A stretch of DNA of 64,000 nt from Candidatus Woesearchaeota archaeon (GTDB taxonomy: Archaea; Nanobdellota; Nanobdellia; Pacearchaeales; GW2011-AR1), in the NCBI GenBank assembly GCA_964355135.1, contig CAYHCG010000001.1, forward strand, positions 146,138 through 210,137, read 5' to 3'. Both the position numbers and the translations under genes were made by a program. This document shows positions 4,255 through 64,000 of this stretch, one piece after another; the stretch's first letter is position 1; every line of letters starts with the position of its first letter. The notes under the pieces are model-generated. The model was not told the origin of the DNA. It saw only the letters and a program-made list of their open reading frames with translations, and made no database searches.

Positions 4255-4264
4255 TTGGACTAAA

Positions 4265-4286: not shown

Positions 4287-4321
4287 ACTTTATCAAAAAG
4301 CTCGAAAGAACTTTGGGATCG

Positions 4322-4394: not shown

Positions 4395-4408
4395 AAACAA
4401 AGGAAAAA

Positions 4409-43231: not shown

Positions 43232-44071
43232 ATGAAATCAAAAATAACATCAGGAATAATAAGCATTTTAGTTATTGTATTACTCGTAACTATGGGTCCT
43301 GCTGATGCCCTTGTTTTGAATATGGCTGTTACCGATAGTTCTCCTTTTGTTGGTGAAATTATCCATTTTGATGTTTCTGCTGAAGTTGAAGATGGCGACC
43401 AAGTACAGGAAGATGACTATCTTATACTTGAGTTGGATGGACCTCAAGTGACTACATGTAAATTCTCACTTAAGGGAGAGGCACTGTCATCATGCCCTGG
43501 AATCAATATAACTTTACTTCACTCCCCTGATATTGGATACGGATATGGGTATGGTGTTGAGTCGGGAGTATTCAAATATGATATTTCTTTAGATACTGAT
43601 TTCTACAAGCCCTGGTTATATCATACTAAATTAATTCTAGTAACTGATACAGAAACTTTTGAGAAAGCTGGGCCTGATATAACTATTACAAGAAGAGCTG
43701 TGAATATGGTAGGATGTTCTGTTAGATCAGATGACGGAGACTTTACGTTTGGAGATATGACTTTTGATGAGGGATCAAGAGTTAACTTCAATATACCTAT
43801 AAGAAACTCTGCAAATGGTGGACAGGGACACTTGATATCACAAACAAGAAGAGGTAGATTCTCTTACAAGTTTGACTTCATAAAAGTCTTGGATAGTAAT
43901 AGTGACGAAGCTACATTGCTTGTCTCTGGAACTTATAGAAGCGGACCTGGTAGCAGGACAGATGCTACTGCAATACTTGTTTTAGATAAAGATGATAAGA
44001 GCGTGGATATATTCTCTGAAGACTTTACTCTTGATGATAGTGAAGTAAGGTTTATGCGCGGATGCAATTAG
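43232..44071 (+). CDS. secreted or anchored protein of unknown function
   Basis: ATG at 43232 after a GAGAGGA sequence. The signal/TM segment is ITSGIISILVIVLLVTMGPADA. Confidence 0.6.
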   Translation: MKSKITSGIISILVIVLLVTMGPADALVLNMAVTDSSPFVGEIIHFDVSAEVEDGDQVQEDDYLILELDGPQVTTCKFSLKGEALSSCPGINITLLHSPDIGYGYGYGVESGVFKYDISLDTDFYKPWLYHTKLILVTDTETFEKAGPDITITRRAVNMVGCSVRSDDGDFTFGDMTFDEGSRVNFNIPIRNSANGGQGHLISQTRRGRFSYKFDFIKVLDSNSDEATLLVSGTYRSGPGSRTDATAILVLDKDDKSVDIFSEDFTLDDSEVRFMRGCN

Positions 44072-45911: not shown

Positions 45912-46216
45912 TTATTGATCTAGAATTAATTTTAGTATTTCTTATACAACGCTGCCTTTAATAGGGGGTTATCTTAGACTGAAAATGGAAGACGAAAACA
46001 CAAACAGAAAGAAAAAGAGACAACAAGAGGGCGGAAGCAACACTGGTACAGACACCAGTAGCAGCCAAAATGATGACAGCGATGAAAGATAAAATCGCAA
46101 GATAAATTTTAATTTTTTTGTAAATTTTTTTATTTAGTCGGAACTATATAAGATCATAACTTCATCAAGTGAAAGTAGTAAGCAACTTTTAAATAAAAAT
46201 TAACTCAGGAGTTAGT

Positions 46217-48364
46217 ATGAAAATGGGAAAGTTATCCTACTTACTTGTAATACTCTTAGTTGCATTGACCTTTATTGGACTAACAAGCGCTGCATTGATT
46301 ATCAATGAAATTGAAGTAAATCCTCCAGGCAGTGAAGCTGGAAATGAATGGATTGAACTATTTAATGATGGTACGCCAGTTAATCTAAGCGGATGGTATA
46401 TCCAAGATAAAGACGGAAATAATTATAGTTTTGGAGAAGTTATAGTAACTCAGTTTTACGTTCTTGACGGGTTAAGTGGACTGGAAAATTTAAATCAGGA
46501 TTTAAACTTGTATGATAAGAATGGCGCTATGAAAGATTCTTATGAGAATTTTGATGATATTCTAAACAGTGATATGACTTGGAGCAGGATGCCGGACGGG
46601 ACAGGAAATTTTGATTTTAAGACTAGCACTAAAGGATTGCCAAATGAGGAAATAGAGATAAATGATAGAGATTCAACTCCAAGTTGCATTACCGCTTCAA
46701 CGAATGTAACTTTGAGCGCGAGTGTGACTGGATTTTGTGTTACAAATGTAGTTTTCTCTGTACTTGTAGATGGAAGCTGGATAAACTTTAACGGAATAAA
46801 AAACGGTGATGAATACAGCGCTAGAATACCTTCAATACTACTGAATGCCTCGGAGAGTGTTGACTGGACTATGTCTGCAACTGACTGTTTTAACACTACT
46901 ATGCAAGATGGAATAGAGAGTTTTTATGTAAATTCAAAAACTATGTTAGAAATTGATCCTACAAATCCTAGTGGTTTAGGTGGATGGTATGTGACTGAGC
47001 CTTTTTTTGAATTGATCAACCCTGATGCTGCGATGTTATTCTATCAGTGGGATTCCCAGCAAAGCAATGAATATACTGCTCCTTTTGGATTAGAAGATGT
47101 TCCTAACAATGCAAATGTAACTGGAGGAATACTGGAATTAAATTATTGGAGTGATGTCTGTAATGAAGAACGTCATAGGGTATTGCTCAAAACAGACTTT
47201 AAAGATCCGGAAATAGAAGACTTGCAACCTGCGCAAGGATCAGTAGTAATCAATAATCCAAGGCCAACTATAAGCGCATTACTTGATGAAGTATATCAGT
47301 CAAATTCTGGAATTAATAAGAGTGAAGTTGAGATGTATCTAGATGGAGTAAAGGTAAATGCTGGAGTAGAAACGTCTGGCAGCATTTTAGATGCAGAGAT
47401 ATCTTTTACTCCTTTAAGTGATCTATCTGAAGGGAACCATAGCGTTAGGATAGATGCAAAAGACAATGCTGGAAGAAGTTCAAGCATGGGCTGGAACTTT
47501 ACTCTTACTCTTAGTGTTGCAATTGAGTTTGAGGTTAATAGCCCTATAAATAAAATCTATAAGAGCAAGAAAGTGCCTTTTAACATAAGTGCCTCTGAAG
47601 TTCTTGATACTATTGAATATATTAATTATAATGAAAACACTCCAAGATGGAGATTATTATGCCACAGTTGCATGGAATATGGCAGTATGAGGAAAAAGGA
47701 AAGAAGCCTAGTGGAAGGCGAGAATAATATAACTATAAGAGGAATTAGTATTTACGGACAGGTAATTGAAAGGAATGTTACGTTGATGATTGAATCCAGA
47801 TCTCCAAAAATAAGTAAAACTCTTCCGCAGAGAGGTTTTACATCAGGCAATTTCACTATAGTGTTTGAAGAAGAGAATCCTGTGAATGTGACTTTGGTTT
47901 ATGGAAATTCCTTTAGCGGCATGCGCACGGCAGAAGTAGACTATTCCCAATGTGAAACAGAAAGAGACTTTGAGTGCAGCATTTTAGTTGATTTGATAGA
48001 TTATCAGGAGGCAGAAATTGAGTATTACTTTATTGTTAGTGATATAGCAAACAATACTGCTATTTCAAGAAGTAGAGAACTGATAGTTGACGCAGTTCCT
48101 CCCGCCATTAATGAATTTGGATATAATATTACAGATAGAAAGGTTGACTTTATGTTTAATATTACTGAAATGAATCTAAAGAAAGTGTATTACACTGATC
48201 ACAATGAAGCAAATCCACGCGGCAGGACTTTATGCACAAGACTTGTTGATGAACTATGTAAGAAGAAAGTGACTTTCTCGAGTGGAGAACATAATCTTAC
48301 CTTGACTGTTGAAGACAAAGCAGGGAACAAAGAAAATATTGAGAATATAGTTTTTGTTGTTTAA
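46217..48364 (+). CDS. secreted protein with an N-terminal lamin-tail domain (LTD) and C-terminal Ig-like units
   Basis: There is a signal peptide. LIINEIEVNPPGSEAGNEWIELFNDGTPVNLSGWYIQD is the LTD signature. The C-terminal half is colinear with 4409-6118. Confidence 0.8.
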   Translation: MKMGKLSYLLVILLVALTFIGLTSAALIINEIEVNPPGSEAGNEWIELFNDGTPVNLSGWYIQDKDGNNYSFGEVIVTQFYVLDGLSGLENLNQDLNLYDKNGAMKDSYENFDDILNSDMTWSRMPDGTGNFDFKTSTKGLPNEEIEINDRDSTPSCITASTNVTLSASVTGFCVTNVVFSVLVDGSWINFNGIKNGDEYSARIPSILLNASESVDWTMSATDCFNTTMQDGIESFYVNSKTMLEIDPTNPSGLGGWYVTEPFFELINPDAAMLFYQWDSQQSNEYTAPFGLEDVPNNANVTGGILELNYWSDVCNEERHRVLLKTDFKDPEIEDLQPAQGSVVINNPRPTISALLDEVYQSNSGINKSEVEMYLDGVKVNAGVETSGSILDAEISFTPLSDLSEGNHSVRIDAKDNAGRSSSMGWNFTLTLSVAIEFEVNSPINKIYKSKKVPFNISASEVLDTIEYINYNENTPRWRLLCHSCMEYGSMRKKERSLVEGENNITIRGISIYGQVIERNVTLMIESRSPKISKTLPQRGFTSGNFTIVFEEENPVNVTLVYGNSFSGMRTAEVDYSQCETERDFECSILVDLIDYQEAEIEYYFIVSDIANNTAISRSRELIVDAVPPAINEFGYNITDRKVDFMFNITEMNLKKVYYTDHNEANPRGRTLCTRLVDELCKKKVTFSSGEHNLTLTVEDKAGNKENIENIVFVV

Positions 48365-48440
48365 AAAATACAGCGAAAGTAGTTTTACTGAAAAAAAGTG
48401 GTAAGATTGATTTAAATAAAAGAAATTTATTAGAAAAGAC

Positions 48441-51400
48441 ATGGTGAAAAAAAGAGAAACAATTTTATTTTCGCTGGTATTTATTTTATTTATTGGATTT
48501 TGCGCGAGTGTTTCTGCTGGTGATGTCGCTTATATCTATAGTAAGAGTTTTAGAATTGATGATAATATAGTTAATGCTATAAAAAATTTGGGCTTTACTG
48601 TTGACTTGATACAGGAAAATAATATTCCAAGTAATTTGAATAATTATAAATTTATTTTTGTTGGTGATGAAAGCTTTAGAGATGAGAAAAAAGTCCCTGT
48701 GAATAAATATCCTGCTATTGTTGTTAATTACTATCATGCTACTGAATGGGGTCTTGCTGATCAGGAAGGAGTTAGCCTACTTGCACAGAATAGTCCTTTA
48801 AGTGTTAGAAAAGATGGGAGATTGATTCCTGCTTATACTAGAGCATATGCTTCTGATGGTACTGCCTTGCCTTATTATTATCTGGATATGGAAGACAAGG
48901 CGCCAGTACTAAAAGATGTTGCTTTTACTGAAACTACTTCTTCTGGATCTAAGTTTGGAACGGTTATTGCTACTGCTGATGCAGGATCTATAATGGCTAA
49001 TGGAAAAGTACAGGCCGGAAAGTTATGCTTTTTTGGGATAGTAGAGAGCGATTATTGGACAACTGGATCTAAGAATTTGTTTAATGAATGTGTAGGATTT
49101 GTATCCTCACAATGCACTACTGATAATGAATGTTCTAATCAAGTAATTAATGGGACTCCTTTCTGTCATGAAGGAGATGTTTACCAGCAGGTTACCTTGA
49201 ATAAATGTGTTATTCAGAACAATGTAGGAAGATGCATGCCTCAAAATAATAGTGTTTTAGTTGAAGAATGCCAGTTTGGCTGCAATGATGGAATGTGCAT
49301 CGGAGGCAAGCATGATGTTGCATTAGTTGATTTTTCTAATTCTGTACAGAAAATAAGACTAGAGTATACTAATGGAACAGATTTATTAGGGAATACCTTG
49401 ATGTGCAATCAAGAATACAAGATTTCAGTAACAGTTGAAAATAAAGGAGATTTTATAGAGAATGTTACTTTTGAAGGAGGTGTGGGAAGCATAGAGTTTG
49501 AGCATTTACCTATTGAAAATTTACTAGTGGATGATAAGAAATTAAAGACGAAGACTGTTAACTTCAGCTTAGGTGAAGGGAACTATAATATTACAGTACG
49601 GGCCATTATTGATAGTGATGACGATTTAACTAATAATCAAGCAAAGAGAGAAGTAGTTGTCTCATGTATGCAACCCTCATGTTTTAGAGATTCAGATTGT
49701 GGCACTGATGGATTTATCGGAGAAAACATGTGCGTTGGAAAGAATGTGACTCGCGACTATAAATTATTTACCTGTAATAATGCAGGAACACTGCAGAGTT
49801 CATGCACTTCTAGAATAGAGAAGAGAGTAACTCAAATCTGTAGCGATCTGTGTACAAATGGACAGTGTGAAGGGGTAAATTGCCATAATGATGAAGATTG
49901 TGCTGATTCTAATCCTTTGACTAAAGATGAATGTATCAATCCTGGCACAGTTGTAAGTGAGTGCAGAAATACTCCTATTAATTGCGCAGCTAATGCTGAT
50001 TGTGGATTTAGTGGCTTTATCGGAACAGAATTCTGTTCTGTTAATAATGTGAAGAAAAACTTCCAAAATGCTATTTGTAATAATGCAGGCACCTTGCAGA
50101 GTTCTTGTTCTATTACAGTGGAGCAAAGAGATGTAAATCAATGCGAGTTTGCTTGTTCAGAAGGAGCTTGCATAAGGTGTGATACCAATGCTGATTGTGA
50201 TGATAGTAAAGGAAATACTCAAGATACCTGTAGAAATGCGGGCACTGAAGAGAGTTTCTGTACTAATGAGGTAGATGAAGAAATTACCTGTAAAATGGAT
50301 AGCGATTGCGGTTCAGACCAGATATTAAGCCAGCCTTTCTGCTCTGTAAATGATGTAAATCAATTGGTTAGAAAATGGCACTGTATGAATCCTGATTCTG
50401 TTGTAAGCTTCTGCACTTCAACTATTGAGCAGGAAGTCAAGCAGACGTGTAGCAATTTATGCTCAGATGGAAGATGTGTTGATATAGAATGTTTCAATAA
50501 TGCAGATTGTAATGATAATAATAGCACTACTACAGATATCTGCAGGCACCCTGGAACGGAACAAAGCTTCTGTACTAATGATAATATTGTAGCAATCTGT
50601 CACACTGATTCTGATTGTGGTATGGATGGATTTATCAGTCAGAATATCTGCTTTGGAAATAATGTAACAAGACTATTCCAAGATTATACTTGTAATAATC
50701 CAAGTACGAGCGTGAGTTTCTGTTCTTCTGAACTAAGACAGCAAGTTACTCAAACCTGCAGCAATAGTTGCTCTAATGGAGAGTGTACTACACAGACTGG
50801 AGAATGTACTCCTGGGCAAACAAGAGCGTGTGGTAGCAGCGGCACTGGAGAATGCAGAATGGGAACACAGACTTGCGAAAGTAATGGATTTTATGGAAGT
50901 TGCAGCGGAGCAGTCAATCCTGTGAGTGAAATATGCGACAGTAAAGACAATAACTGTAATGGGCAAACAGACGAAGGAAATGTTTGCACAGTTCAATGTC
51001 AAGACGAATGTTCTCAAACAGGCTTGACACAATGCTCTGGAAATGGATACAAGACTTGCGGAAACACAGATAGCGATAGTTGTTTAGAATGGAGCACTAC
51101 TGTTACTAACTGTGCAGCAGGGCAAAGCTGTACTAACGGGCAGTGTACTAATAATCCCCCACAGTGTATACCTAGTACGGAAGTGTGTGACAATAAAGAT
51201 AACGACTGTGATAGCAGCGTAGATGAAAACTTTGGAACTAATACCTGCGGCGTTGGAGCTTGCCAGAGAACTGTTAATATGTGTGTGAATGGACAAACAC
51301 AACTATGTACTCCTGGAATGCCTGGTGCTGAAACTTGTAATAGTGTGGATGATGATTGTGACGGATCAGTTGATGAAGGCGGAGTTTGCCAACCAAGTTG

Positions 51401-52037
51401 CACTAATGATTGTACTTGGGGAAACATGCAGTGTAATGGGAATGGCGTACAAGTATGTGGCAATTTTGATTCAGATTCCTGCAGCGAGTGGAGCAGTATC
51501 AGTCAGTGCGGTAGTGGAAAAGTTTGTGAACTTGGCCAATGTATAAATCAACCTCCACAATGTAGCAATGAATGCAGTACGGGATCTAAACAATGCTCTG
51601 GAAATGGATACAAAGTATGTGGAAATTATGATTCTGACTCTTGCACAGAATGGAGCGGAGTTAGCCAATGTGGAACTGGAAAGACTTGCGATAACGGACA
51701 GTGTGTGAATCAACCTACTCCGTGTACTAATCAATGTAGTGATGGAACTAAACAGTGCTCTGGTAATGGATTTAAAGTTTGCAGAGACTATAATGGTGAC
51801 GGGTGTACTGAGTGGAGTAGCGTCGCTGCCTGTGGGACAGGAAAAGAATGTTCAAGCGGTGAATGTGTACCAATTAATAGTTGTACTAACAAATGTAACG
51901 ACGGTAGCAGACAATGCAGCGGAAATGGATTCCAAGTGTGCAGAGATTACAATGGAGATGGCTGCACAGAATGGAGTAGCACAGCTCAATGCGGTTATGG
52001 TAAACTTTGTCAAGGAGGATTTTGCGAACCACTATGA
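48441..52037 (+). CDS. giant secreted hyper-cysteine-rich modular protein
   Basis: A signal peptide is followed by a domain of about 195 aa, a CARDB-like domain, 5 modules of type CxxDxDCGxDGFIG...CNNAGTLQSSC..., MopE-like CD-x-(K/V)D(N/D)(D/N)C(D/N)(G/S)-x-(T/V)DE motifs, and 5 C-terminal modules of about 52 aa with 8 Cys each. Confidence 0.85.
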   Translation: MVKKRETILFSLVFILFIGFCASVSAGDVAYIYSKSFRIDDNIVNAIKNLGFTVDLIQENNIPSNLNNYKFIFVGDESFRDEKKVPVNKYPAIVVNYYHATEWGLADQEGVSLLAQNSPLSVRKDGRLIPAYTRAYASDGTALPYYYLDMEDKAPVLKDVAFTETTSSGSKFGTVIATADAGSIMANGKVQAGKLCFFGIVESDYWTTGSKNLFNECVGFVSSQCTTDNECSNQVINGTPFCHEGDVYQQVTLNKCVIQNNVGRCMPQNNSVLVEECQFGCNDGMCIGGKHDVALVDFSNSVQKIRLEYTNGTDLLGNTLMCNQEYKISVTVENKGDFIENVTFEGGVGSIEFEHLPIENLLVDDKKLKTKTVNFSLGEGNYNITVRAIIDSDDDLTNNQAKREVVVSCMQPSCFRDSDCGTDGFIGENMCVGKNVTRDYKLFTCNNAGTLQSSCTSRIEKRVTQICSDLCTNGQCEGVNCHNDEDCADSNPLTKDECINPGTVVSECRNTPINCAANADCGFSGFIGTEFCSVNNVKKNFQNAICNNAGTLQSSCSITVEQRDVNQCEFACSEGACIRCDTNADCDDSKGNTQDTCRNAGTEESFCTNEVDEEITCKMDSDCGSDQILSQPFCSVNDVNQLVRKWHCMNPDSVVSFCTSTIEQEVKQTCSNLCSDGRCVDIECFNNADCNDNNSTTTDICRHPGTEQSFCTNDNIVAICHTDSDCGMDGFISQNICFGNNVTRLFQDYTCNNPSTSVSFCSSELRQQVTQTCSNSCSNGECTTQTGECTPGQTRACGSSGTGECRMGTQTCESNGFYGSCSGAVNPVSEICDSKDNNCNGQTDEGNVCTVQCQDECSQTGLTQCSGNGYKTCGNTDSDSCLEWSTTVTNCAAGQSCTNGQCTNNPPQCIPSTEVCDNKDNDCDSSVDENFGTNTCGVGACQRTVNMCVNGQTQLCTPGMPGAETCNSVDDDCDGSVDEGGVCQPSCTNDCTWGNMQCNGNGVQVCGNFDSDSCSEWSSISQCGSGKVCELGQCINQPPQCSNECSTGSKQCSGNGYKVCGNYDSDSCTEWSGVSQCGTGKTCDNGQCVNQPTPCTNQCSDGTKQCSGNGFKVCRDYNGDGCTEWSSVAACGTGKECSSGECVPINSCTNKCNDGSRQCSGNGFQVCRDYNGDGCTEWSSTAQCGYGKLCQGGFCEPL

Positions 52038-52040
52038 TTG

Positions 52041-52072
52041 TTACCTTGGTCAGTAAATACAAAAATATTGCG
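52041..52072 (+). promoter_or_regulatory. conserved upstream motif, copy 1
   Basis: TTACCTTGGTCAGTAAATACAAAAATATTGCG lies about 20 nt upstream of the TATA-like CTTTATATAG of 52118-53155. Confidence 0.5.
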
Positions 52073-52117
52073 ATGGAGAACGATAACCTTTATATAGGGA
52101 CGAAAGTGAGGTAGAAC

Positions 52118-53155
52118 ATGCAAAAACAAACTCTAGGAAAATTAGGATTGGTCGGATTGATGCTAGGTAGCACTTTCGGATGCAGAAACAGAATCCAGCC
52201 TGAAACTTTACCTGCTAACAATGTTATTTTTGGAAGAACAATGGATGTTTATGAAGAAGATTTACAAAACTCTCCTGAAGGTTTACTTGATGAATTTAAC
52301 AGTATGCCTCTAGAAATTGCACCTTGCGCAAATGACGCTCCTGCTATAGTAGAAGTTGAACTATTTGATGATTTGAATAATAGAGATGCTCCTTTTGATG
52401 TTCAAGAAGTACGAAGTGCACAACACCCAAATGTAACTTATCTTCAATTTACAGATAATGCTGGAGAATTTGTAGATGGAGAATACTGGACAATGAAAGT
52501 ACGTTCTGGATGCAATAATGTTATTGCTGATTCAACTAGAGTTGTTAGTGTTCGTTATCATACAGGAAGCGGTCCTGCAAGATTAGATGATAGATTAGAT
52601 AATGTAGAAGATGAAGTTTTCGGATATGTTGTAGATGATGGAAAATGCGATTCAGCTTTAGGTGAAAATTCAGCAAACTCTCCAAGAGATTGCTACCAAA
52701 TGCCAACAGATCTTACAGACCTTCTAGCAGATACTTACACAGTTATTGTTGACGCAAGTGGAAACGAAGTAAGCCCAATGACAGTAACAGCTGGAAGCGA
52801 AACTGTATTCAGAGCTCAGTTACATATGCCTACAGAATTAGAAGATAAAGTTGGAGCTCCTTCAAACTTAGCAATTACAGAATTAGGATATACTGGAGCA
52901 GATGACTGCTTTAGAGTTGTCTCAGTTGGACAGCCTCAAAGAACAGGCGAACATCACGATATGGTAACTTACGAATCAACATTCAAAATGTTGAAAGAAC
53001 TTGGCTGTGCTCAGAATTATGAATTAGTTCATGCAAGCTTTGGACTTGATATAGGAAATGGAGATGTTAACTTCAATGACTCTGAAGAAGCAATGAAATC
53101 CAGAAGACCTTCTTACCAAACTACTGGTTACACTGCTCAGATCAACGGAAATTAA
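52118..53155 (+). CDS. secreted acidic protein with a lipobox-like signal
   Basis: LGLVGLMLGSTFGCRN. Confidence 0.65.
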   Translation: MQKQTLGKLGLVGLMLGSTFGCRNRIQPETLPANNVIFGRTMDVYEEDLQNSPEGLLDEFNSMPLEIAPCANDAPAIVEVELFDDLNNRDAPFDVQEVRSAQHPNVTYLQFTDNAGEFVDGEYWTMKVRSGCNNVIADSTRVVSVRYHTGSGPARLDDRLDNVEDEVFGYVVDDGKCDSALGENSANSPRDCYQMPTDLTDLLADTYTVIVDASGNEVSPMTVTAGSETVFRAQLHMPTELEDKVGAPSNLAITELGYTGADDCFRVVSVGQPQRTGEHHDMVTYESTFKMLKELGCAQNYELVHASFGLDIGNGDVNFNDSEEAMKSRRPSYQTTGYTAQINGN

Positions 53156-53271
53156 TTTTTTGAGTTTTTATTACTACTAAGTTTTAAGTTTGTGTTATTG
53201 ATTTTACTTTACAAATTCATTATTAGAGATCAAAACTTTGCCATTAACAAACAACGATGAAACTTGATTTG

Positions 53272-53304
53272 TTACCTGGACCAGTAACTACAAAAAACAT
53301 GTTA
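53272..53304 (+). promoter_or_regulatory. conserved upstream motif, copy 2
   Basis: TTACCTGGACCAGTAACTACAAAAAACATGTTA lies about 17 nt upstream of the TATA-like GTTTAAATAG of 53367-54377. Confidence 0.5.
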
Positions 53305-53366
53305 CTAAAGGATAATAAAGTTTAAATAGGGATGTTCGATAATGTTATTATTAAATAATTACTACA

Positions 53367-54377
53367 ATGATGAAAAAAACTACAACTACGCAAACTAACT
53401 TCGCTGGAATTGCACTATTAAGCGTTTTATGCATTTTACTTTTGATTGGAATAGTTGCAGGAACATTAATGCTTACTGATAACTCTAAATATACAATTAG
53501 TGAAAAAAAGAATAATCCTCTTAATAAAGTAATTAATGAAAATCTAGAGGGATATAGAACTGTTGTAAGTAATGATTTGTATTGCCCTTATACTATTGGA
53601 CAAGATATAGATAAAGATAATGTTGATGATTTCTGTGATAATTGCCCATTGCATTACAATCCTGAACAGTTTGATAATGATAGAGACGGAGTAGGAAACG
53701 ATTGTGATAGCACTCCAAATGGAGTATCAAAGTCTGATGCACCTACTGTGCCTGATACCCCGACAATGCCTGTTACATGTAGCAATAATGCGGATTGCGG
53801 AACCGATGGATTCATTGGCGGATTTTTCTGCTCATCTAATAATGTTGCTATAAATTATCAAATATTCACTTGTAATAATGCCGGCACAACACAAAGTTCT
53901 TGCTCAGTAAGAACTGAAGACAGAGTAATCAATACTTGCACTAATGGCTGTTCTAATGGACAGTGTAATGATCAACCACCACAATGCACAAACAAATGCA
54001 CTGATGGAGCAAGACAATGTTCTGGAAATGGATTCCAAGTGTGCAGAGATTATGATGGAAATGGCTGCACAGAATGGAGTAGCACAGCTCAGTGTGGATT
54101 TGGTCAGACATGTAATAATGGAAATTGTGATAGTCAACCTCAATGCACACCTCAAAACGAAGTTTGCGATGGTAGAGACAATGATTGTGATGGTCAAACT
54201 GATGAAGGCGGAGTTTGCCAACCTACATGCACAAACAAATGCACTGATGGAGCAAGACAATGTTCTGGAAATGGATTCCAAGTATGCAGAGATTATGATG
54301 GAAATGGCTGCACAGAATGGAGTAGCACAGCTCAATGTGGATTTGGAAAAACCTGTTCTGCAGGCCAGTGCAACTAA
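53367..54377 (+). CDS. membrane-anchored cysteine-rich protein with a thrombospondin type-3-like repeat
   Basis: An N-terminal TM segment is present. DKDNVDDFCDNCPLHYNPEQFDNDRDGVGNDCD is the TSP3-like pattern. One CGTDGFIG module and two 8-Cys modules flank CDGRDNDCDGQTDEG. Confidence 0.8.
   Translation: MMKKTTTTQTNFAGIALLSVLCILLLIGIVAGTLMLTDNSKYTISEKKNNPLNKVINENLEGYRTVVSNDLYCPYTIGQDIDKDNVDDFCDNCPLHYNPEQFDNDRDGVGNDCDSTPNGVSKSDAPTVPDTPTMPVTCSNNADCGTDGFIGGFFCSSNNVAINYQIFTCNNAGTTQSSCSVRTEDRVINTCTNGCSNGQCNDQPPQCTNKCTDGARQCSGNGFQVCRDYDGNGCTEWSSTAQCGFGQTCNNGNCDSQPQCTPQNEVCDGRDNDCDGQTDEGGVCQPTCTNKCTDGARQCSGNGFQVCRDYDGNGCTEWSSTAQCGFGKTCSAGQCN
53984..54103 (+). repeat. 120-bp intragenic repeat, copy 1
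   Basis: It differs from 54227-54346 at 2 positions. A roughly 70-bp core also matches 51921-51990 in the giant gene. Confidence 0.85.
54227..54346 (+). repeat. 120-bp intragenic repeat, copy 2
   Basis: See copy 1. Confidence 0.85.
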
Positions 54378-54464
54378 TTGTTGATTGACTAATTATTATT
54401 TATTTTAATAACTATTGAGTGTTTTAATTTATTATTGTTATTTATTGTCTTATTATTTTTCATG

Positions 54465-54496
54465 TCACCTTGCTTAGTAACTACAAAAATATTGCG
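54465..54496 (+). promoter_or_regulatory. conserved upstream motif, copy 3
   Basis: TCACCTTGCTTAGTAACTACAAAAATATTGCG lies about 17 nt upstream of the TATA-like ATTTATAAAG of 54555-55241. Confidence 0.5.
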
Positions 54497-54554
54497 TTCT
54501 ACAATAAGATTATTTATAAAGAAAACTTGGACTACTCTATTGTAATTAATAAAA

Positions 54555-55241
54555 ATGAGAAAACAAAATATCACTTATGCTCTAGGAATTATATTAGCAC
54601 TAATGATAATTCTAAATGCTGCACATGTTTCTGCGATCACTGGAAGTATTGGCAGCGCAAGAATGACCTTGCGCGCTGAAGTTGGAGAGGAAGTCGAGAG
54701 ATCAATTCTAGTAAGAAATGTTAATGATGTTGCAGTTAATATCAATGTTACTGCCTCTGGAGATTTAGCAGAGAACGTTAACTTAGATGAAGATAATTTT
54801 GACTTAGAGGCAGGAGAAGAAAAGAAAGTGTATTTCACCATCGAAGCAGATGAAGAAGGAACTACAGAGACAAGAATAACTATCAAATTCACACCTATCG
54901 AAGGGGGCAACGGCGTTGTATTATCTTCTGTTGTGAATGTGATTGCAGCAGGCGAGGGATCTGTGGACGATAGTGAAGAAGAAGATTTGAATGACACTGA
55001 AGATGGAAACGACTTTAATTTTGGTATCGGAAGCTCTGATGACTCCGACTCTATTGATGGTGAAGATAGAGATGCTACAGACTTGGAATTATCTCCTCTA
55101 AATATGTTAATGATTTCAACTATTGTACTGATTATTATCTTAGTAATACTTATTGTTTGGGCAAGTAAAAAAAGAAATAAAAGAAGCACTGCAGTGAATA
55201 AAACAGCAGTTAAAAAGAGGTCGGGGAGACCTAGTGAATAA
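54555..55241 (+). CDS. surface protein: one N-terminal module paralogous to 55234-59601, an acidic linker and a C-terminal TM anchor
   Basis: Signal peptide. SAITGSIGSARMTLRAEVGEEVERSILVRNVNDVAVNINV parallels SAISGIIGNTNVQMNGEAGKSYENYILVKNSNSFPVKITL. A C-terminal TM segment and a Lys/Arg tail follow. Confidence 0.75.
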   Translation: MRKQNITYALGIILALMIILNAAHVSAITGSIGSARMTLRAEVGEEVERSILVRNVNDVAVNINVTASGDLAENVNLDEDNFDLEAGEEKKVYFTIEADEEGTTETRITIKFTPIEGGNGVVLSSVVNVIAAGEGSVDDSEEEDLNDTEDGNDFNFGIGSSDDSDSIDGEDRDATDLELSPLNMLMISTIVLIIILVILIVWASKKRNKRSTAVNKTAVKKRSGRPSE

Positions 55242-58200
55242 TAAAATACTACTTTTAGCAATCTTATTAGTGTTATTGCCATTGACTTCGGCTATTAGCG
55301 GGATAATTGGAAATACCAATGTTCAGATGAATGGGGAAGCAGGAAAATCCTATGAGAACTATATTTTAGTAAAAAACAGCAATAGTTTTCCGGTTAAGAT
55401 AACTTTAACAGGTGTAGAAGACATTAGCGATAAAATAGTATTTAGAGATAATAACTTTACTCTAGAAAGCCAGCAACAGCAGAAAGCATATTTCAATCTT
55501 AGCTCGGAGGAAACAGGAATTTTTGATGGCAATATAAGAGTAAGATTTGCAGGAAATGGAACAAGCCTTACTTTATCTTCATCTGTAAAATTCACTGTGA
55601 CTAATTCCACAGGCGATGAGGAAGAGGAAGAAGAGCAAAATGAGACTATTCTAGTAACTACCTTCATAGATTCGCCAGCAGTCGCAGGAGAGGAGTTAAC
55701 TGTCAGAGCAGAAATCACTAACTTAGGAGAAGATGGAGAATTTTCTATTGATGTGATGGATTATGAAAACTGGGCAATACTAGATGAATTATCAAATGAT
55801 ACTATTGAAATTGGTGAAAATTCTACTGAAGAAGTCACATTATTATTTACTATTAAAGAAAGCGCAGCGGGAGAGCAGTCATTTACATTGGAAGTGAGTG
55901 ATGGACTGCAAACCCAAACGCAGGAAGTGACTGTGCTAGTTGAAGGACTAGGCGGAGATGACACCTCAATAATTCCTTTTATAGGAAATACTAGTATGAC
56001 TATCAATGGTTTTATTGGAGATAACTTAAGCAGAAGCATACTAGTGAAAAATGTCAATGACTTCCCTATTACTGTAAATATCACTACTACTAATGCAAGC
56101 ATCGTTTTACTTGATAAGAGCTTAAACTTGAATCCTGGGGAATCAGCGCAGGCCAGATTTACAGCTAAAATAAACAGCACTGGCACAAAAGAAAACAGAC
56201 TTAGCTTCCAGTTCAATGCTAATGGAAGAGACAGCGCCACATTATCTTCAACTATTATTTTAATAGGGCAAGCAAGACTGCGAGCAGATGTTGCTTATAT
56301 TGTAAGAAACTTGAACGGGGTTGACCAGAACTTACTCAATGAAATTAGGGCTTTAGGATATACTTATGAAACACTCCAGGAACCGCAGTTGTCTAGCGTC
56401 AATCTTAATGAATTTAGACTGCTTGTTATTGGAGACCAGGATCTAGTAGATCCTGCTGCTATTCCTATTGAAAAACATAAAACATTGATACTCAATTCTT
56501 ATGATTATTATAAATTAAGTAATGGAGACACTCAACTAGGATGGAGCGGCGCTAAAAGCTCTACCACAAGTCCTAAGATGAAAGTGAGAAATCTCATTAG
56601 CCCAATATCTTTGGGTATGGCCGAAGAATTTAATTCTTACAGTGTGAATACTGGGAAAAATAATATTCTTAAGGGACAGAAGCCAACAGGAACAGATATT
56701 GTAGTTTCAACTGCAACGCAGAGCGCTGACGCCACTATAGCTTCGTTAGATAAGGGCAAGAAACTCTTAAATGGAAGGACACTTGCAGAAAGGCATGTAT
56801 TCTTTGGGTTTACACAAGCAAGATACTGGACAAGCGATACTAAGAAGGCATTTAAGAATTCAATCAATTGGCTTTTAGTTGGAGAAGATAGAGACGCAGA
56901 TGGCTTCTTCTCAGATACTGATTGTAATGATAATAATTTTAATGTGAATCCTGGAGCTTTAGAAGTAGCTTATGATGGGCTAGACAATGATTGTGTGGGT
57001 GGAGACTTAAAAGATGTTGACAGAGATGGATTTGATGCTATGATAGCTGGTGGAAACGACTGTGATGATCAAGATACTGCGACAAACCCTGCATCTAGTG
57101 ATGTAATGCTAAACTGCCGCAATGACGCTCCTACTGTAGCAGATATTCAACAAATCAGAGTAAGTGAGACTGAAATAGTAGTTGTAGCTGTAAACGCTAA
57201 TGATCCTGAAGGTGATGAATTAGATTATTCTATAACTGAGCCTAATTTTGTTAAAGTTGGGAACACCTTCAGCTGGTTGACAACACTTGAAGATGAAGGC
57301 AATTATACATTCACTGTAACTGTGTCTGATGGGGAGTTTAGTGTTGAAGAACTGGTTCAAGTCGAAGTAACCAAATTTAATAGAGCGCCATTATTGTTTG
57401 AGAATATTCCTGCTGTAGCATGGGGAGAGGATAGATATGCGCAAATAGACTTATTCTCTTACTTTATAGATGAAGATGGAGATAGTTTGACTTTTGGGGT
57501 TAATCTAACTTCCGGCAATATTACTATAGAAGCTATTGATGAAGATACATTCAAATTTACCTCAGCAGAAAATTGGAATGGAGAAGGAAGCGTTGTGTTC
57601 TGGGCGAGTGATGGAGAAAAAATAACTTTGTCTAATACTTTGGAAGTATATGTAATTCCATTAAACGATCCTCTCCTGTTCAAGGGAAGTATAGCTGATA
57701 TAACTCTAAATGAAGATACTAATCTAACTAATGCTATAGATCTTAGTGATTACTTTATAGATGTGGATGGAGACGAGTTGACTTATGCCTTTGAAAAAGA
57801 CAAGGCTGGAGTAGATATTGTAATAGAGAATGATTCAGTAAGCTTCTATCCGACTAGAGATTTCAATGGTGATTTCAAGGTAATCTTTGAGGCAAGTGAT
57901 TCCGAGTACACTGCTAAATCAAATTATGTGAACGTGGAAGTAAACGCTAGAGGCGAATTGCCTATACTTACAGAATTAAGATGTGTTACTGATATAGAAG
58001 AGGACTCAATCTATGAATGTGAATTAAGCGCAGAAGATGGGGAAATAACTAGAGAAGGGGAAGATAATCTTACTTTCTCTATAGGGACTCAAAATAATTT
58101 AGAATGCTCTGTAGTAGGCAATGTCCTAACTTATAATGCAAAGAAAGATTACAATGGGGCCGCATGGTGTGAAGTTATAGTAAGTGATAAAGATGGAAGT

Positions 58201-59601
58201 GATTCTGAAAAACTTGAAGTTAGCGTTGGCGCTGTAAATGATGGTCCAAGAATTCTTTCTTATACTCCTACAGAAGACTCTGTGACAATCATAGAAGGAA
58301 GAAGCAAAGAATTCAGAATGAATGCCGGAGATATCGATTCCAACCCAACTATATCCTGGATTGTAAATGGTGAAGTAAGAGCAAGTGATAGCGGAGGGCA
58401 ATCAACGTACATTTTCTCACAACCACCAGGATTCTATTTGCTTGAAGCAAAAGTAAGAGACTCCGCTTTTAGTGAGAGCAGAGTATGGAGCGTTATTGTT
58501 GGACCTACTAGTGATTTCACCTGTTCAGAAGTGGGCGGATTTATAATAGCTGAGCGTGAAACATGTGCTGGATCATTAATAGCTGTAAGAGACAGCTCTG
58601 CATGCTGCTCCATAAGAGGGTCTCCTTCATTTAGTGATGCAGATGCTTGCCAACTCATAAATAACAGTGTCAGTATAGAAATAACTGACCCTGAAAGCGA
58701 TGATGAACTTTTCATTGGTGATGATATAAGAATAAACTTAAACATTGATAATAACTTGGATGAAGACCAGGACTTTGATATTGAAGCTCATTTGTACAAT
58801 ATGGATGGAGATAAGTCTGAAAACTCCGTCGATACTAGTTTTGAAATAGAGGCAGGCAGATCAAGAAACGTCCGCTTAGACCTAGAAGTTCCTAGTGATA
58901 TTGATCTAGATGAGAATTACGCTTTATTTGTGACTGTGCAGGACGAAGTCTGCTCACAGACATATAGGGAAATAGAATTAGAGAGACCTGCACAACAGGT
59001 AGAAATAACTGATTTTAGCTTGGCTGGCACAGTTATGTGCGGAACAAGCTTAGATACTAGAGTAAAAATTGAGAATTTAGGCTCTGATGATCAGGATGTA
59101 AGGATAAAAATTGCAAATAGAGACTTGAAAATAAGCGAAGAGACTGAAGTTTTCGAATTGAAAGAATTTGACGAAAGCGATGACAAAGAAACTAAAGAGT
59201 TCAGCCTAGTTATTCCTGATGACGCAGAAGAAGGAACTTACGAAATAGAAGCAACCGTATACTTTAATGGTAAGAGCCAGACTGTCAAAGAAAAGACTAT
59301 TGTAGAATGTCCTAGTCAAAGACCTGTTGAAAGTCAGAGCGTATCAACTTCAGCAACACTACCATTAAATGAGAGGATTAAACTTAATAGCGTTAATTAT
59401 ACTGAGAAAGTAGAGAAAAGATTTGGTTTGAGTCTAGCTTTAATATTAACTGTTGCTAATTTTGTTATGCTACTAGTGATATTCACCGCTGCAAGAAACT
59501 GGAAACGGAGAAAACTAGAGAACGATTTAGAAGTATTAAGAACAAGAGTTTTCATTAGCGAAGATGAATTAGCTGCTAAAGAAGCGAAGAAAAAGAAGTA
59601 A
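55234..59601 (+). CDS. giant multi-domain surface protein with a C-terminal TM anchor
   Basis: The GTG start overlaps the upstream stop by 8 nt. A signal peptide is present. The protein contains CARDB-like domains, a roughly 200-aa domain shared with 48441-52037, MopE-like motifs (DRDADGFFSDTDCNDNN...NPGALEVAYDGLDNDC), four cadherin/Ig-like units (NDAP/NRAP/NDPL/NDGP starts), a TM segment and a Lys-rich tail. Confidence 0.85.
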   Translation: MNNKILLLAILLVLLPLTSAISGIIGNTNVQMNGEAGKSYENYILVKNSNSFPVKITLTGVEDISDKIVFRDNNFTLESQQQQKAYFNLSSEETGIFDGNIRVRFAGNGTSLTLSSSVKFTVTNSTGDEEEEEEQNETILVTTFIDSPAVAGEELTVRAEITNLGEDGEFSIDVMDYENWAILDELSNDTIEIGENSTEEVTLLFTIKESAAGEQSFTLEVSDGLQTQTQEVTVLVEGLGGDDTSIIPFIGNTSMTINGFIGDNLSRSILVKNVNDFPITVNITTTNASIVLLDKSLNLNPGESAQARFTAKINSTGTKENRLSFQFNANGRDSATLSSTIILIGQARLRADVAYIVRNLNGVDQNLLNEIRALGYTYETLQEPQLSSVNLNEFRLLVIGDQDLVDPAAIPIEKHKTLILNSYDYYKLSNGDTQLGWSGAKSSTTSPKMKVRNLISPISLGMAEEFNSYSVNTGKNNILKGQKPTGTDIVVSTATQSADATIASLDKGKKLLNGRTLAERHVFFGFTQARYWTSDTKKAFKNSINWLLVGEDRDADGFFSDTDCNDNNFNVNPGALEVAYDGLDNDCVGGDLKDVDRDGFDAMIAGGNDCDDQDTATNPASSDVMLNCRNDAPTVADIQQIRVSETEIVVVAVNANDPEGDELDYSITEPNFVKVGNTFSWLTTLEDEGNYTFTVTVSDGEFSVEELVQVEVTKFNRAPLLFENIPAVAWGEDRYAQIDLFSYFIDEDGDSLTFGVNLTSGNITIEAIDEDTFKFTSAENWNGEGSVVFWASDGEKITLSNTLEVYVIPLNDPLLFKGSIADITLNEDTNLTNAIDLSDYFIDVDGDELTYAFEKDKAGVDIVIENDSVSFYPTRDFNGDFKVIFEASDSEYTAKSNYVNVEVNARGELPILTELRCVTDIEEDSIYECELSAEDGEITREGEDNLTFSIGTQNNLECSVVGNVLTYNAKKDYNGAAWCEVIVSDKDGSDSEKLEVSVGAVNDGPRILSYTPTEDSVTIIEGRSKEFRMNAGDIDSNPTISWIVNGEVRASDSGGQSTYIFSQPPGFYLLEAKVRDSAFSESRVWSVIVGPTSDFTCSEVGGFIIAERETCAGSLIAVRDSSACCSIRGSPSFSDADACQLINNSVSIEITDPESDDELFIGDDIRINLNIDNNLDEDQDFDIEAHLYNMDGDKSENSVDTSFEIEAGRSRNVRLDLEVPSDIDLDENYALFVTVQDEVCSQTYREIELERPAQQVEITDFSLAGTVMCGTSLDTRVKIENLGSDDQDVRIKIANRDLKISEETEVFELKEFDESDDKETKEFSLVIPDDAEEGTYEIEATVYFNGKSQTVKEKTIVECPSQRPVESQSVSTSATLPLNERIKLNSVNYTEKVEKRFGLSLALILTVANFVMLLVIFTAARNWKRRKLENDLEVLRTRVFISEDELAAKEAKKKK

Positions 59602-59606
59602 ACAAC

Positions 59607-60329
59607 TCAATTAAAAGTTTCTAAATAAGTCTCTAAAGCAGAAACAAAACCTGCCCTTTTTCTTTTATCTTTAGTTGGATGTATCCTAAAATAATACGCC
59701 TTGTGGATTATGTGTTTCTTCTCTTTAATGAAGTTATTCAAACCTTTCCAGGTTCTCGGAGGAAATTTCCCCAAACTCTTTTGTTCGTGAAACACGATCC
59801 AAAATACTTGTTTGATCAATTGGGAAAAGCCATATTCTCCTTTTTTGTGAAGAAGAATCGTCTGGTTCTTTAGGGTTTTTATCTCGTCCTTAAACATCTC
59901 CTCTGGTTTTCTCATAGGGTAGGTTGCTTTGTTCAATTTCTTGCCATAAACTAATTTATAATATTCTAAATCCCTTAGAAATGTGTCTGGTCTGCCTTTA
60001 AGAGGTCCGCGATGTTTTGCATTTTTATTATTTTTTAATTCTGTTAATGATATTGGCAAGAGTTCTGAAGGTTTGAGCATTTCTTTTTTTACATTACGTA
60101 CTGATTGCAGTTTCTTTAGTGTTTTATTATCTTTTACTATTGGAACAATATCCACGTCGCTTTTCTCGTTCATTTCTCTCGTAACAAAAGTTCCTTTAAT
60201 GTAGATAGAAACTATTTTGTTTTGGGGTATATTTTGGAAAAGGAACTTTATTGCCCTATTTACAGAATCAATAGCCATTTTTTCTATGGAAGTCTTGTTT
60301 TTGTAACTTATCCAAAACTCATTTATCAT
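59607..60329 (-). CDS. nucleotidyltransferase-domain protein (Pol-beta superfamily)
   Basis: IYIKGTFVTREMNEKSDVDIVPIV (G-T...D-x-D), with a helical C-terminal half. Confidence 0.55.
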   Translation of the reverse strand: MINEFWISYKNKTSIEKMAIDSVNRAIKFLFQNIPQNKIVSIYIKGTFVTREMNEKSDVDIVPIVKDNKTLKKLQSVRNVKKEMLKPSELLPISLTELKNNKNAKHRGPLKGRPDTFLRDLEYYKLVYGKKLNKATYPMRKPEEMFKDEIKTLKNQTILLHKKGEYGFSQLIKQVFWIVFHEQKSLGKFPPRTWKGLNNFIKEKKHIIHKAYYFRIHPTKDKRKRAGFVSALETYLETFN

Positions 60330-60392
60330 TATAACACTAAAGACGGCATACTTTTAATTCTTTTCCATTAATTCCACTAGTTATTTAGAAAT

Positions 60393-60782
60393 CTATTCTG
60401 CTGCTTCTAATTGACATCCGGTCTTTATAGCTAAAGCCTCTAGAGTTTGCTCTCCGGCAAGGAAAGATCCGTCTGGCATTTCCCACATAGGGTAGCTATT
60501 GACTCCTTTTTCTTCACATAGGGCAGGATTTGCGTCATCGCCTCTTGGATCACATTCTACATAATTAACGTACTGGAAAGAATTTCCAAAGCGCTGCTTT
60601 TGATTTGCGCAGTGAGGGCACCAGTATGCGCCATACATTGTTACGCCAGAAGTTGTCAAGCATTGAGCGAAAGCGTCATAGTCTCCGGGGCCTAAAGAAC
60701 CGCTCCCTCCGAACTGAGTTATTGCAAATACGATGACGCCTACAACGATTATTCCTATCAATAATTTTGTTGAAGATTGCAT
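60393..60782 (-). CDS. membrane-anchored thioredoxin-fold thiol-disulfide oxidoreductase (VKOR-associated Trx-like type)
   Basis: An N-terminal TM segment is present. MYGAYWCPHCANQKQRFG...VECDPRG...C...GVNSYPMWE includes the CPHC active site and a cis-Pro-type YP. Confidence 0.7.
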   Translation of the reverse strand: MQSSTKLLIGIIVVGVIVFAITQFGGSGSLGPGDYDAFAQCLTTSGVTMYGAYWCPHCANQKQRFGNSFQYVNYVECDPRGDDANPALCEEKGVNSYPMWEMPDGSFLAGEQTLEALAIKTGCQLEAAE

Positions 60783-62562: not shown

Positions 62563-64000
62563 ATGGTTCAATTGAAAGATATTGACGACATTCAAGATTT
62601 AGAAATTGTTAGTTTGGATGAACTTCTAGAAAGAAGAGGTTATAAAGGCTTTAAAGAGAAATTTAAACAAATAGAGAAGAGAATTGTTGAAGAAGGAAAA
62701 GCGTCTAGCTTGACGGCTTATTTATTATACGAGCATCAATTTAGGCAGAGATCTCTAACAGAATTAGCAAGTGAAATAGGAATATGTAGGCCAAGCATAC
62801 AAAACCTGTTTAAAAACGCAAAAATTCCAAAAAGAAGTGGAGGAGAGTCTTCTAAATTAGAAAAAAATAAAAAAAAGGTAAGTGAAAAAAATAAGAGAGT
62901 AAGCGACGAAGAATGTGCTTCCTTTATGCTGGATTATGTTTTTTTTAATGACTCCATAAATCAATTAAAAGAAGATTATGGAATCAAATCCAGACCCCAG
63001 TCATTTTATAGCAGAGCAATTGATATGGGGATAATAACAAAAGAACAGTTTGAAAGAGCTGCAAAAAGAAGAAAAGAAAAATCAGATAGAAGTCAGAAAA
63101 CTCGAGCCATATTAGATTATGATGAATTAAGACAATTCTCTAGAGAATATGTTGAGTGCATCACTCCTTCTGGGGATTTACTAAAAGAATATGGCCTTAG
63201 CCAAGTTAGCCAGTCATTGGATAGAGCAATAAACCTTGGCCATATAACAAATGGAGAGAGAGAAAGAGCGGCTAAAATTAGAAAAAACAACGATTTGGGT
63301 AATAGAAAATATTCTGGAGAAAATCTAGTTGGATTTGAGAAAGGACGTACAATTTCTGAAGAAGAAAGAAAAGAAATGAGCTCTATGCGAAAGGGCGATG
63401 GCAATTCATTTTTTGGGAAGACACATACAGATGAAACAAAAGAAAGAATAAGATTGACACATGAAAACCCAGAAGCTAAACTAAGGGACAGAGAAAATGG
63501 AATTAAGGCAGCAATAAGAAATAAAAAAACAAAATTTATTTTCAATGGAAGACTATATGATTCGAACACAGAAGCAGTGGTTGCTAATCTTTTTGAAAAA
63601 TACATGCCAGGATATAAAGTAATAGAAGGAGAAACATTTCAAATTAATTCTAAATCCGGGGCATTGCTGGACTTTATTCTTCCTGATGGAAAAATCTTGG
63701 AGTGGCATCCTGTAAATATTACTTATGATGCTTCCCGAGAGGATAGACAAGCTTACAGAGAATTAATTTCACAGTTGCCTCCAAAAGAAAGAGGAGAATT
63801 CAAAAGATGGTATCATGATGAAATCGCCTTAGATTATTGGATATCCAGGCAAGAAAAAGTAGATTCTTCCCCAATTTTTCATGGTAGGGAGGTAATCCTA
63901 GTAAGAAATTTTGATGAGTTGTATAAGGAAGTATTAAGCTTTTACAATGTAGATATCCCAAATAAGAACTCTTTAAAAATAGAATATAATGAATTAAAAT
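62563..64000 (+). CDS. NUMOD3-motif DNA-binding protein, homing-endonuclease-like, 3'-truncated by the window edge (not in the supplied track)
   Basis: My own translation from ATG 62563 stays open to the window end. SGENLVGFEKGRTISEEERKEMSSMRKGDGNSFFGKTHTDETKERI matches NUMOD3. There are two HTH-like units of about 45 aa (EDYGIKSRPQSFYSRAIDMGIITKEQFERAAK and KEYGLSQVSQSLDRAINLGHITNGERERAAK). LDFILPDGKILEWHP is a possible PD-(D/E)xK-like core. Confidence 0.6.
   Translation, partial: MVQLKDIDDIQDLEIVSLDELLERRGYKGFKEKFKQIEKRIVEEGKASSLTAYLLYEHQFRQRSLTELASEIGICRPSIQNLFKNAKIPKRSGGESSKLEKNKKKVSEKNKRVSDEECASFMLDYVFFNDSINQLKEDYGIKSRPQSFYSRAIDMGIITKEQFERAAKRRKEKSDRSQKTRAILDYDELRQFSREYVECITPSGDLLKEYGLSQVSQSLDRAINLGHITNGERERAAKIRKNNDLGNRKYSGENLVGFEKGRTISEEERKEMSSMRKGDGNSFFGKTHTDETKERIRLTHENPEAKLRDRENGIKAAIRNKKTKFIFNGRLYDSNTEAVVANLFEKYMPGYKVIEGETFQINSKSGALLDFILPDGKILEWHPVNITYDASREDRQAYRELISQLPPKERGEFKRWYHDEIALDYWISRQEKVDSSPIFHGREVILVRNFDELYKEVLSFYNVDIPNKNSLKIEYNELK

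Follow-up and report, generated by a model that had tools for sequence, protein, structure and literature searches.

Genes and domain architecture

The 64-kb window analysed here (64,000 nucleotides of contig CAYHCG010000001.1, deposited as Candidatus Woesearchaeota archaeon) contains six consecutive + strand genes, named g1 to g6, which together form a candidate surface-protein cluster (Table 1). A first-pass annotation made from the sequence alone had listed them as one island, and all six open reading frames (ORFs) were found exactly at the coordinates it gave. The six proteins are acidic (pI 4.2-4.4), and each has an N-terminal hydrophobic segment, weaker in g3; a C-terminal transmembrane (TM) helix is additionally present in g5 and g6. 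In agreement with the signal peptides or anchors first assigned to them, the products are predicted to be extracytoplasmic, either secreted or held by a lipid or TM anchor. N-terminal hydrophobic segments occur in about 28% of the window ORFs, so six consecutive ones would arise by chance at about 5e-4; the conserved synteny described below argues more strongly than this figure against a random run.

Table 1. Features of the cluster and its immediate flanks, in window coordinates
Feature	Position	Strand	Description
Upstream neighbour	43232..44071	+	279-aa secreted acidic protein
Class-1 promoter of g1	46173..46195	+	AAGTAGTAAG-N5-TTTAAATA; TATA box starts 29 nt before ATG
g1	46217..48364	+	715 aa, secreted/anchored; lamin-tail domain (LTD), Big_13, further Ig-like domains
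Class-1 promoter of g2	48396..48418	+	AAGTGGTAAG-N5-TTTAAATA; 30 nt before ATG
g2	48441..52037	+	1198-aa secreted protein; only MopE-type Cys motifs in Pfam
Class-2 box of g3	52040..52068	+	GTTACCTTGGTCAGTAAATACAAAAATAT; 49 bp upstream of TATA-like box at 52089
g3	52118..53155	+	345 aa, acidic (pI 4.32), fast-evolving putative lipoprotein, near-orphan
Class-2 box of g4	53271..53299	+	50 bp upstream of TTTAAATA at 53321
g4	53367..54377	+	336 aa; N-terminal TM helix anchor, thrombospondin type-3 (TSP3) repeats, Cys modules
Class-2 box of g5-g6 operon	54464..54492	+	49 bp upstream of TATA-like box at 54513
g5	54555..55241	+	228 aa; signal peptide, one Ig-like (ASH/PapD-like) domain, acidic linker, C-terminal TM helix
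g6	55234..59601	+	1455-aa type I membrane protein
g7	59607-60329	-	Pol-beta-type nucleotidyltransferase between g6 and g8
g8	60393..60782	-	129-aa thioredoxin (Trx)-like protein, N-terminal TM anchor, CPHC site

The domain contents proposed for these genes held up in profile and structure-database searches. For g1, Pfam recognised the LTD (39.4 bits against a gathering cut-off of 34.3) and Big_13. The g2 protein is composed of a signal peptide, an alpha/beta domain (residues 25-224, hereafter the head), a Cys module, a CARDB-like Ig domain and a Cys-rich tail of about 790 aa of modules, MopE motifs among them; with 115 Cys (9.6% of residues) it deserves the label hyper-Cys that it had been given, and g4 has 33 (nearly 10%). 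Residues 73-116 of g4 are TSP3 repeats that align to the Ca-binding wire of thrombospondin-2 (PDB 1yo8, E=2.8e-6), while Pfam detected a weak MopE motif. The motif CDxxDNDCDGxxDE is present in g2, g4 and g6, all of which resemble in this the MopE-type 'putative metal-binding' Cys motifs of prokaryotic surface proteins; the likeness to TSP3 and MopE covers only short segments of the three proteins. The greater part of the Cys-rich sequence, which consists of modules of about 65, 32 and 50 aa, was unmatched in Pfam, NCBIfam and PDB, and an AlphaFold2 (AF2) model of the Cys module (pLDDT 58, pTM 0.29) gave no meaningful Foldseek match.

The g5 protein matched the Ig-like families ASH, Cep192_D3 and FixG_C weakly in Pfam. 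From its N-terminus, g6 contains two pairs of an Ig-like and a CARDB-like domain, the head (about 345-560) and a MopE motif, followed by tandem Big_9/cadherin-like repeats, CARDB-like domains, the C-terminal TM helix and a basic tail. The stalk repeats scored 91.6 bits for Big_9, 70 bits for Cadherin_5 and 100.6 bits for tand_rpt_95 (cut-off 90), and the CARDB match was weak, which together fit the anchored CARDB/MopE/cadherin-like giant first described. Through internal BLASTP comparisons, we found that the cluster genes share domains with each other, as had been claimed: residues 28-240 of g2 match 352-573 of g6 (E=6e-19), which defines the head; the Cys modules of g2 match g4; and g5 matches two N-terminal segments of g6 (E=6e-20) and is a paralogue of its N-terminal domains. 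In the same comparison, the C-terminal half of g1 matched the window ORF at 4409-6118.

When a head-domain profile was run against 1.84 billion representative proteins, it recovered a family of 740 clusters, of which 323 reached E<=1e-30. The proteins among the matches listed are 215-2594 aa long, with the head at about residues 20-230, straight behind the signal peptide. Those members to which a name could be attached are archaeal and annotated as hypothetical, 'metal-binding motif', 'cysteine-rich repeat' or vWA proteins. The invariant residues of the head are D, N, D, FFG and WT, and neither a known catalytic set nor a conserved Cys/His triad was found among them.

For g3, there was no match in Pfam, NCBIfam or PDB, and a database of 5.8 billion proteins returned only two. 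A Cys closes its N-terminal hydrophobic stretch (LGSTFGC), in which TFGC is a non-canonical lipobox; P0002 has SVSGC at this site, and the genes at the g3 position in two related loci (L017 and L018) encode the canonical lipoboxes LLGGC and LVAGC. The N-terminus of g4 was also considered as a class III (pilin-like) signal peptide, which was rejected on inspection of the ortholog N-termini, as the motif is not common to them.

With its GTG start at 55234, g6 overlaps g5 by 8 nt, and a Shine-Dalgarno-like GGGAG lies before this start. The same 8-nt overlap is found in two related loci, L004 and L009; we therefore preferred this start over the later ATG of the public call, and regarded g5 and g6 as one operon. 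The ORFs at 53904-54335 (-), 53944-54384 (+) and 54575-55282 (-), which lie inside g4 and g5, were rejected as antisense or alternative-frame shadow ORFs; g5 is conserved at the protein level in 31 species.

Downstream of the cluster, with g7 in between, the CPHC oxidoreductase gene reported by the first-pass annotation was recovered as g8. Its product aligns over 87 residues to the Trx-like domain of the Synechococcus VKOR fusion (PDB 3kp8, E=1.3e-22), and the alignment covers the CPHC site and a second Cys pair (YVEC...C motif). By this homology, g8 is a probable extracytoplasmic disulfide oxidoreductase. It resembles the cyanobacterial VKOR-Trx fusion (PDB 3kp8/3kp9, a DsbA/DsbB-type folding system) in both Cys pairs and in being held at the membrane, here by one TM helix, but differs in that it stands alone, with a VKOR domain neither fused nor found nearby. 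All 109 homologues detected are likewise stand-alone proteins of 76-174 aa, none of the 109 has the Pfam VKOR domain, and their named sources are DPANN archaea. A Trx-like gene follows g6 on the opposite strand in L004 and in five loci (L017, L018 and L021-L023) from the Genome Taxonomy Database (GTDB), which makes it a recurrent neighbour, and a part in the oxidative folding of the Cys-rich g2 and g4 proteins is a reasonable inference.

Conservation and promoter elements

Homologues carry the database labels Pacearchaeota, 'Woesearchaeota', DPANN or Nanoarchaeota, and DUF1616 and HVO-type HTH domains within the window are archaeal markers. The window is DNA of a small-genome DPANN archaeon (Pacearchaeota), as the earlier mention of small-genome archaea had anticipated. 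Pacearchaeota are abundant, uncultured archaea with small genomes, and to our knowledge neither a host nor an attachment mechanism is known for them. A 228-kb contig with an identical locus comes from the 0.1-µm filter of Hainich groundwater, well H52.

In locus L004 the order is an anchored nuclease gene, a gene for a 279-aa secreted protein, g1, two inserted genes, g2 to g6 and the Trx-like gene, at an amino-acid identity of 46-66% (58% for the g1 ortholog and 50% for the g3 homologue). The Pacearchaeota metagenome-assembled genome (MAG) RIFOXYC1_FULL_38_15 (loci L009 and L010) has a more distant and expanded version, which begins with an LTD protein, a 478-aa head-domain protein, a g1-like 305-aa protein and a 958-aa g2 homologue, and ends with a 566-aa g4-like protein, a 351-aa lipobox protein weakly similar to g3 (E=0.003), g5 and g6. 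In its g6 ortholog (L009), the head directly follows the signal peptide.

We then used a g5 alignment to scan a single genome of each GTDB species and compared the loci by tblastn. The results showed 31 loci, all in DPANN archaea, and wherever the contig was long enough, a g6-like gene (head, cadherin-like repeats and C-terminal part) directly follows g5. Upstream of this pair, a g2-like gene was found in at least 14 loci, a g1-like gene in about 11 and the g4 N-terminus in four. The g6 orthologs are about 660-1730 aa long with variable numbers of repeats, and every one with a complete C-terminus is predicted to end in a TM helix and basic tail. Two of the loci, L021 and L022, are contigs of one MAG (SRP178908_co1_63) whose g5-g6-Trx segments have equal similarity values to the window, probably an assembly or strain redundancy. 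In the replicate contig L002 g4 seemed to be missing; this was rejected as a biological variant, as an N run at about 12164-12264, within the duplicated Cys module, is a scaffolding artefact at the internal repeat of g4 and the gene caller missed the gene.

A separate TATA-like box with an upstream element precedes each gene from g1 to g5, and only g5 and g6 overlap, which argues that the island comprises at least five transcription units and is not a single operon. Two types of element were recognised. The class-1 element, AAGTRGTAAS-N5-TTTAAATA, ends 21-22 nt before the ATG of g1 and g2, and without mismatch the pattern occurs only at these two genes in the window. Allowing at most one mismatch per half, it was also found before g1- or g2-type genes in 12 related loci (L004, L009, L017, L018, L019, L022, L024, L030, L034, L035, L036 and L037).

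The class-2 box (29 bp, GTYAYCTTG-N3-MAGTAAMTACAAAAA...) starts 49-50 bp upstream of the TATA-like boxes of g3, g4 and g5, and corresponds to the upstream motif that had been noticed at three genes. A position weight matrix (PWM) built from five boxes scored 39-40 bits at these sites, against 14.5 for the next best in 64 kb. In L004, L017 and L018, the top PWM matches lie before the g3-position lipoprotein, the g4-like anchored protein and g5, and in L023, L028, L030, L032 and L036 the box before g5 ranks first locus-wide. An RNA hairpin, or a terminator for the gene before it, was considered as another reading of the box. This was rejected, as the box is an imperfect palindrome with almost no loop and no T-run, and its spacing to the downstream TATA is constant whereas that to the upstream stop codon is variable.

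These results show a lineage-specific gene cluster of Pacearchaeota, conserved across genomes, that encodes predicted surface proteins. Judged by their sequences, the two gene-class-specific, cross-species cis-elements imply co-regulation in two groups, and we consider it very probable that the genes are a conserved, presumably co-regulated surface cluster. The view that these genes form one coherent unit is borne out by the synteny in L004 and L009, the g5-g6 pair in the 31 GTDB loci and the cross-species promoter elements; the genes are co-conserved, which was the point on which comparative genomics could have overturned it.

Boxes of the TTTAAATA type start 29-30 nt before many start codons (e.g., at 1187, 16906, 17958, 40861, 46188, 48411 and 60804 (-)), which suggests that most mRNAs of the source organism are leaderless; a Shine-Dalgarno-like sequence is retained by operon-internal genes such as g6.

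A proposed fibrillar coat and its alternatives

Bacterial fibrillar adhesins consist of a stalk of tandem Ig- or cadherin-like repeats, a distal binding domain and a cell anchor (PMC8286594). The predicted architecture of g6 is similar: a cell anchor, a long stalk of Big_9/Cadherin_5/'tandem-95' repeats and CARDB-like domains, and a non-repeat alpha/beta domain on the membrane-distal side, with repeat numbers that differ between orthologs. It differs in that the cluster is archaeal, the anchor is a C-terminal TM helix instead of LPXTG, a type I secretion system (T1SS) or an autotransporter, the g2/g6 head lies outside the recognised adhesive families, and a second, disulfide-rich type of stalk is present.

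On this basis, we propose that g6 would be a membrane-anchored long stalk of Ig-like, CARDB-like and cadherin-like repeats that holds the head off the membrane, and that g5, its one-domain anchored paralogue, would be co-translated with it and probably be its partner. In g2, the same head would sit on a stalk built of disulfide-rich modules, and g4 would be a short, membrane-anchored form of the g2-type stalk with Ca-binding TSP3 repeats. The surface layer may be completed by g1, with its LTD and Ig-like domains, and the fast-evolving putative lipoprotein g3, while g8 would make or rearrange disulfide bonds among the roughly 150 extracellular cysteines in the g2 and g4 proteins. In combination, the products would make up a fibrillar surface coat, stabilised by Ca and disulfides, whose outward-facing heads, like those of fibrillar adhesins, may bind an external ligand such as a substrate or the surface of a host cell. 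We preferred a binding role because stalk, distal head and anchor are the fibrillar-adhesin architecture. Taken as a whole, this account of an adhesin-like coat with ligand-binding heads stands at about even in our judgement; the binding or attachment role by itself falls somewhat short of that and is offered tentatively.

Several results weigh against it. The head had no sequence match in Pfam, NCBIfam or PDB, and so belongs to no adhesive family recognised there; across the cluster proteins as well, no adhesive, lectin or enzymatic domain was recognised. An AF2 model of the head from eight sequences was of moderate confidence (pLDDT 62.6), with a flavodoxin-like N-terminal half, and Foldseek returned weak matches to GATase1, GH42-associated and flavodoxin folds (best E=0.02), because of which we left its fold family unassigned. 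For g8, the window ORFs that were scanned include no VKOR or DsbB-like partner, and the gene adjoins g6 in only part of the loci. None of the sequencing runs that hold the island sequence is an RNA run; the matching runs are DNA only, from groundwater studies. Two further observations, the score of g6 above the cut-off of an NCBIfam 'putative S-layer protein' model and the wide occurrence of the g5-g6 pair in related genomes, suit a structural coat equally well.

The latter leads to the strongest alternative, a structural surface-layer (S-layer) or cell-envelope cluster, in which g6 would be the main envelope glycoprotein (lattice or canopy), g5 its small anchored partner and g1 to g4 envelope accessory proteins, with any contact with other cells incidental. 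The model in question, NF033506 ('PACE-CTERM-PROT putative S-layer protein'), gave g6 149.7 bits against a cut-off of 110, and its L004 ortholog 125.6. Yet the match is partial and non-collinear: it consists of two CARDB-like stretches in swapped order (g6 127-241 with profile positions 480-588, and g6 about 1146-1350 with 230-458), and the C-terminus of the profile (589-627) is unmatched by g6. In the literature searched, 'PACE-CTERM' was mentioned nowhere. The presence of the g5-g6 pair in all 31 related species loci, the frequent N-x-S/T sequons (20 in g6 and 18 in g1) and the large glycosyltransferase/PMT_2 cluster at 10.8-34.3 kb of the same window all favour an envelope role, as does the fact that candidate DPANN S-layer proteins are multi-Ig and glycosylated, some with a C-terminal TM helix.

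An analogy also exists with the SlaA/SlaB operon of Sulfolobales, where the genes of a small anchored and a large surface protein are likewise adjacent and co-transcribed; the order of g5-g6 is reversed, however, both proteins are TM-anchored, and g5 is paralogous to the N-terminus of g6. We know of no sequence similarity between the two pairs. Because the lengths of the g6 orthologs vary, along with their repeats, g6 looks more like a stalk than a lattice subunit, and a lattice role leaves unexplained why the secreted g2 has the same head. We therefore regard a purely structural S-layer as possible but not probable, and retain the fibrillar coat with binding heads as the better explanation.

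A second alternative is that the cluster captures or scavenges extracellular polymers (DNA, glycans or metals) for an auxotrophic cell, with the LTD and MopE-type motifs as ligand or metal binders and the head as a hydrolase-like or binding module. The MopE 'putative metal-binding' motifs of g2, g4 and g6 would suit this, but these matches are short Cys motifs at or near threshold. LTD domains are often fused to secreted hydrolases, and an anchored staphylococcal-type nuclease (42411-42875, -) is a neighbour in L004, with a similar + strand gene in L040. The weak fold matches of the head do include GATase1-like and GH42-associated alpha/beta domains; the head nevertheless has neither a catalytic domain nor a conserved Cys/His triad, and no transporter is linked to the cluster. 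We consider scavenging improbable. That the genes form no functional unit, but a chance run of unrelated secreted-protein genes with common extracellular repeats, is very improbable: N-terminal hydrophobic segments are common in the window, Cys and Ig repeats are promiscuous among proteins and the genes are separate transcription units, but the gene order is kept at 46-66% identity and beyond and both promoter elements are kept across species, by which this reading is largely refuted.

Lineage-specific surface proteins of Ig, PKD, CARDB or lectin type have been proposed for host contact in Mia14 (PMC5498576), and similar ones for Nanobdella aerobiophila, in a paper which adds that for DPANN no S-layer protein has been determined experimentally (bioRxiv 10.1101/2023.10.27.564410). 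By their descriptions, these candidates (Nanobdella MJ1_0160/0707, NEQ300 and the PKD/CARDB proteins of Mia14) resemble the present cluster: they are multi-Ig, CARDB-like, acidic, sequon-rich and lineage-specific, some have a C-terminal TM helix, and cell-cell contact has been proposed for them. What sets the present genes apart is the conservation of a multi-gene cluster that shares promoters, includes Cys-rich partners and has a Trx-like neighbour. The earlier remark that this domain set and its shared regulation were not recognised as described is thus true only in part, since similar DPANN surface proteins had already been reported. In the limited library searched, we found no description of the cluster, the head domain, the Cys modules or the promoter elements. 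That the head on Ig/cadherin-like or disulfide-knotted stalks represents an undescribed archaeal family of fibrillar adhesins, and the cluster, with a two-promoter regulon of its own and a VKOR-type Trx-like oxidase, the host-recognition and attachment apparatus of Pacearchaeota, is a more specific proposal, which we consider doubtful.

From its predicted products, the cluster is a good candidate for a cell coat or attachment machinery. For the question of how Pacearchaeota contact other cells, it offers specific conserved targets: the g5-g6 operon, the unannotated head family of 740 clusters, the two promoter elements and the stand-alone Trx-like oxidoreductase. The promoter elements are rare inferred gene-class-specific cis-elements for a DPANN lineage. 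If the products turn out to be only a structural coat, the cluster would still name the first S-layer candidate for the order.

Neighbouring genes

The 279-aa protein encoded upstream of g1 has orthologs at the corresponding place in L004 (63% identity) and, as two paralogues, in L009, and it was also matched in L022 and L037; it possibly belongs to the same surface region. The gene at 42411-42875 encodes a membrane-anchored staphylococcal-nuclease-like protein whose neighbourhood is kept in L004 (65% identity) and whose counterpart in L040 likewise lies upstream; it may be an extracellular nucleic-acid scavenger.

Between g6 and g8, g7 was rejected as a member of the system, as several HTH/MNT-HEPN pairs occur in the window and an ortholog at this position is absent from the loci compared; in L004 and L013, an HTH/Pol-beta gene on the + strand takes its place. 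Besides g7, the nucleotidyltransferase (MNT/Pol-beta) genes of the window are located at 14906-15445 (-), 22825-23887 (+) and 31821-32946 (+). Two of the window's MNT/Pol-beta genes are HTH fusions with a HEPN gene after them, and these are probably HEPN-MNT toxin-antitoxin pairs.

The region 10792-34270 is a large envelope-glycosylation region with several GT4 and GT2 glycosyltransferases, two PMT_2/EpsG-like multi-TM glycosyltransferases, an LPG_synthase_TM protein and a DUF1616 protein, and it probably supplies glycans to surface proteins. The genes of a second small surface region (2106-6118) encode an Exo_endo_phos nuclease (2106-2849), a 356-aa product whose N-terminus has a hydrophobic segment (3184-4254) and, at 4409-6118, the 569-aa Ig-like paralogue of the C-terminal half of g1. 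Further ORFs encode a retropepsin-like aspartyl protease (6403-6813, +) and an anchored protein in which two PepSY domains are accompanied by very acidic linkers (36803-37441, +). The + strand gene at 62563-64000 extends beyond the window end; in L001 (20446-21038), the public call is a 498-aa product with a NUMOD3 motif, a DNA-binding motif as in homing endonucleases.

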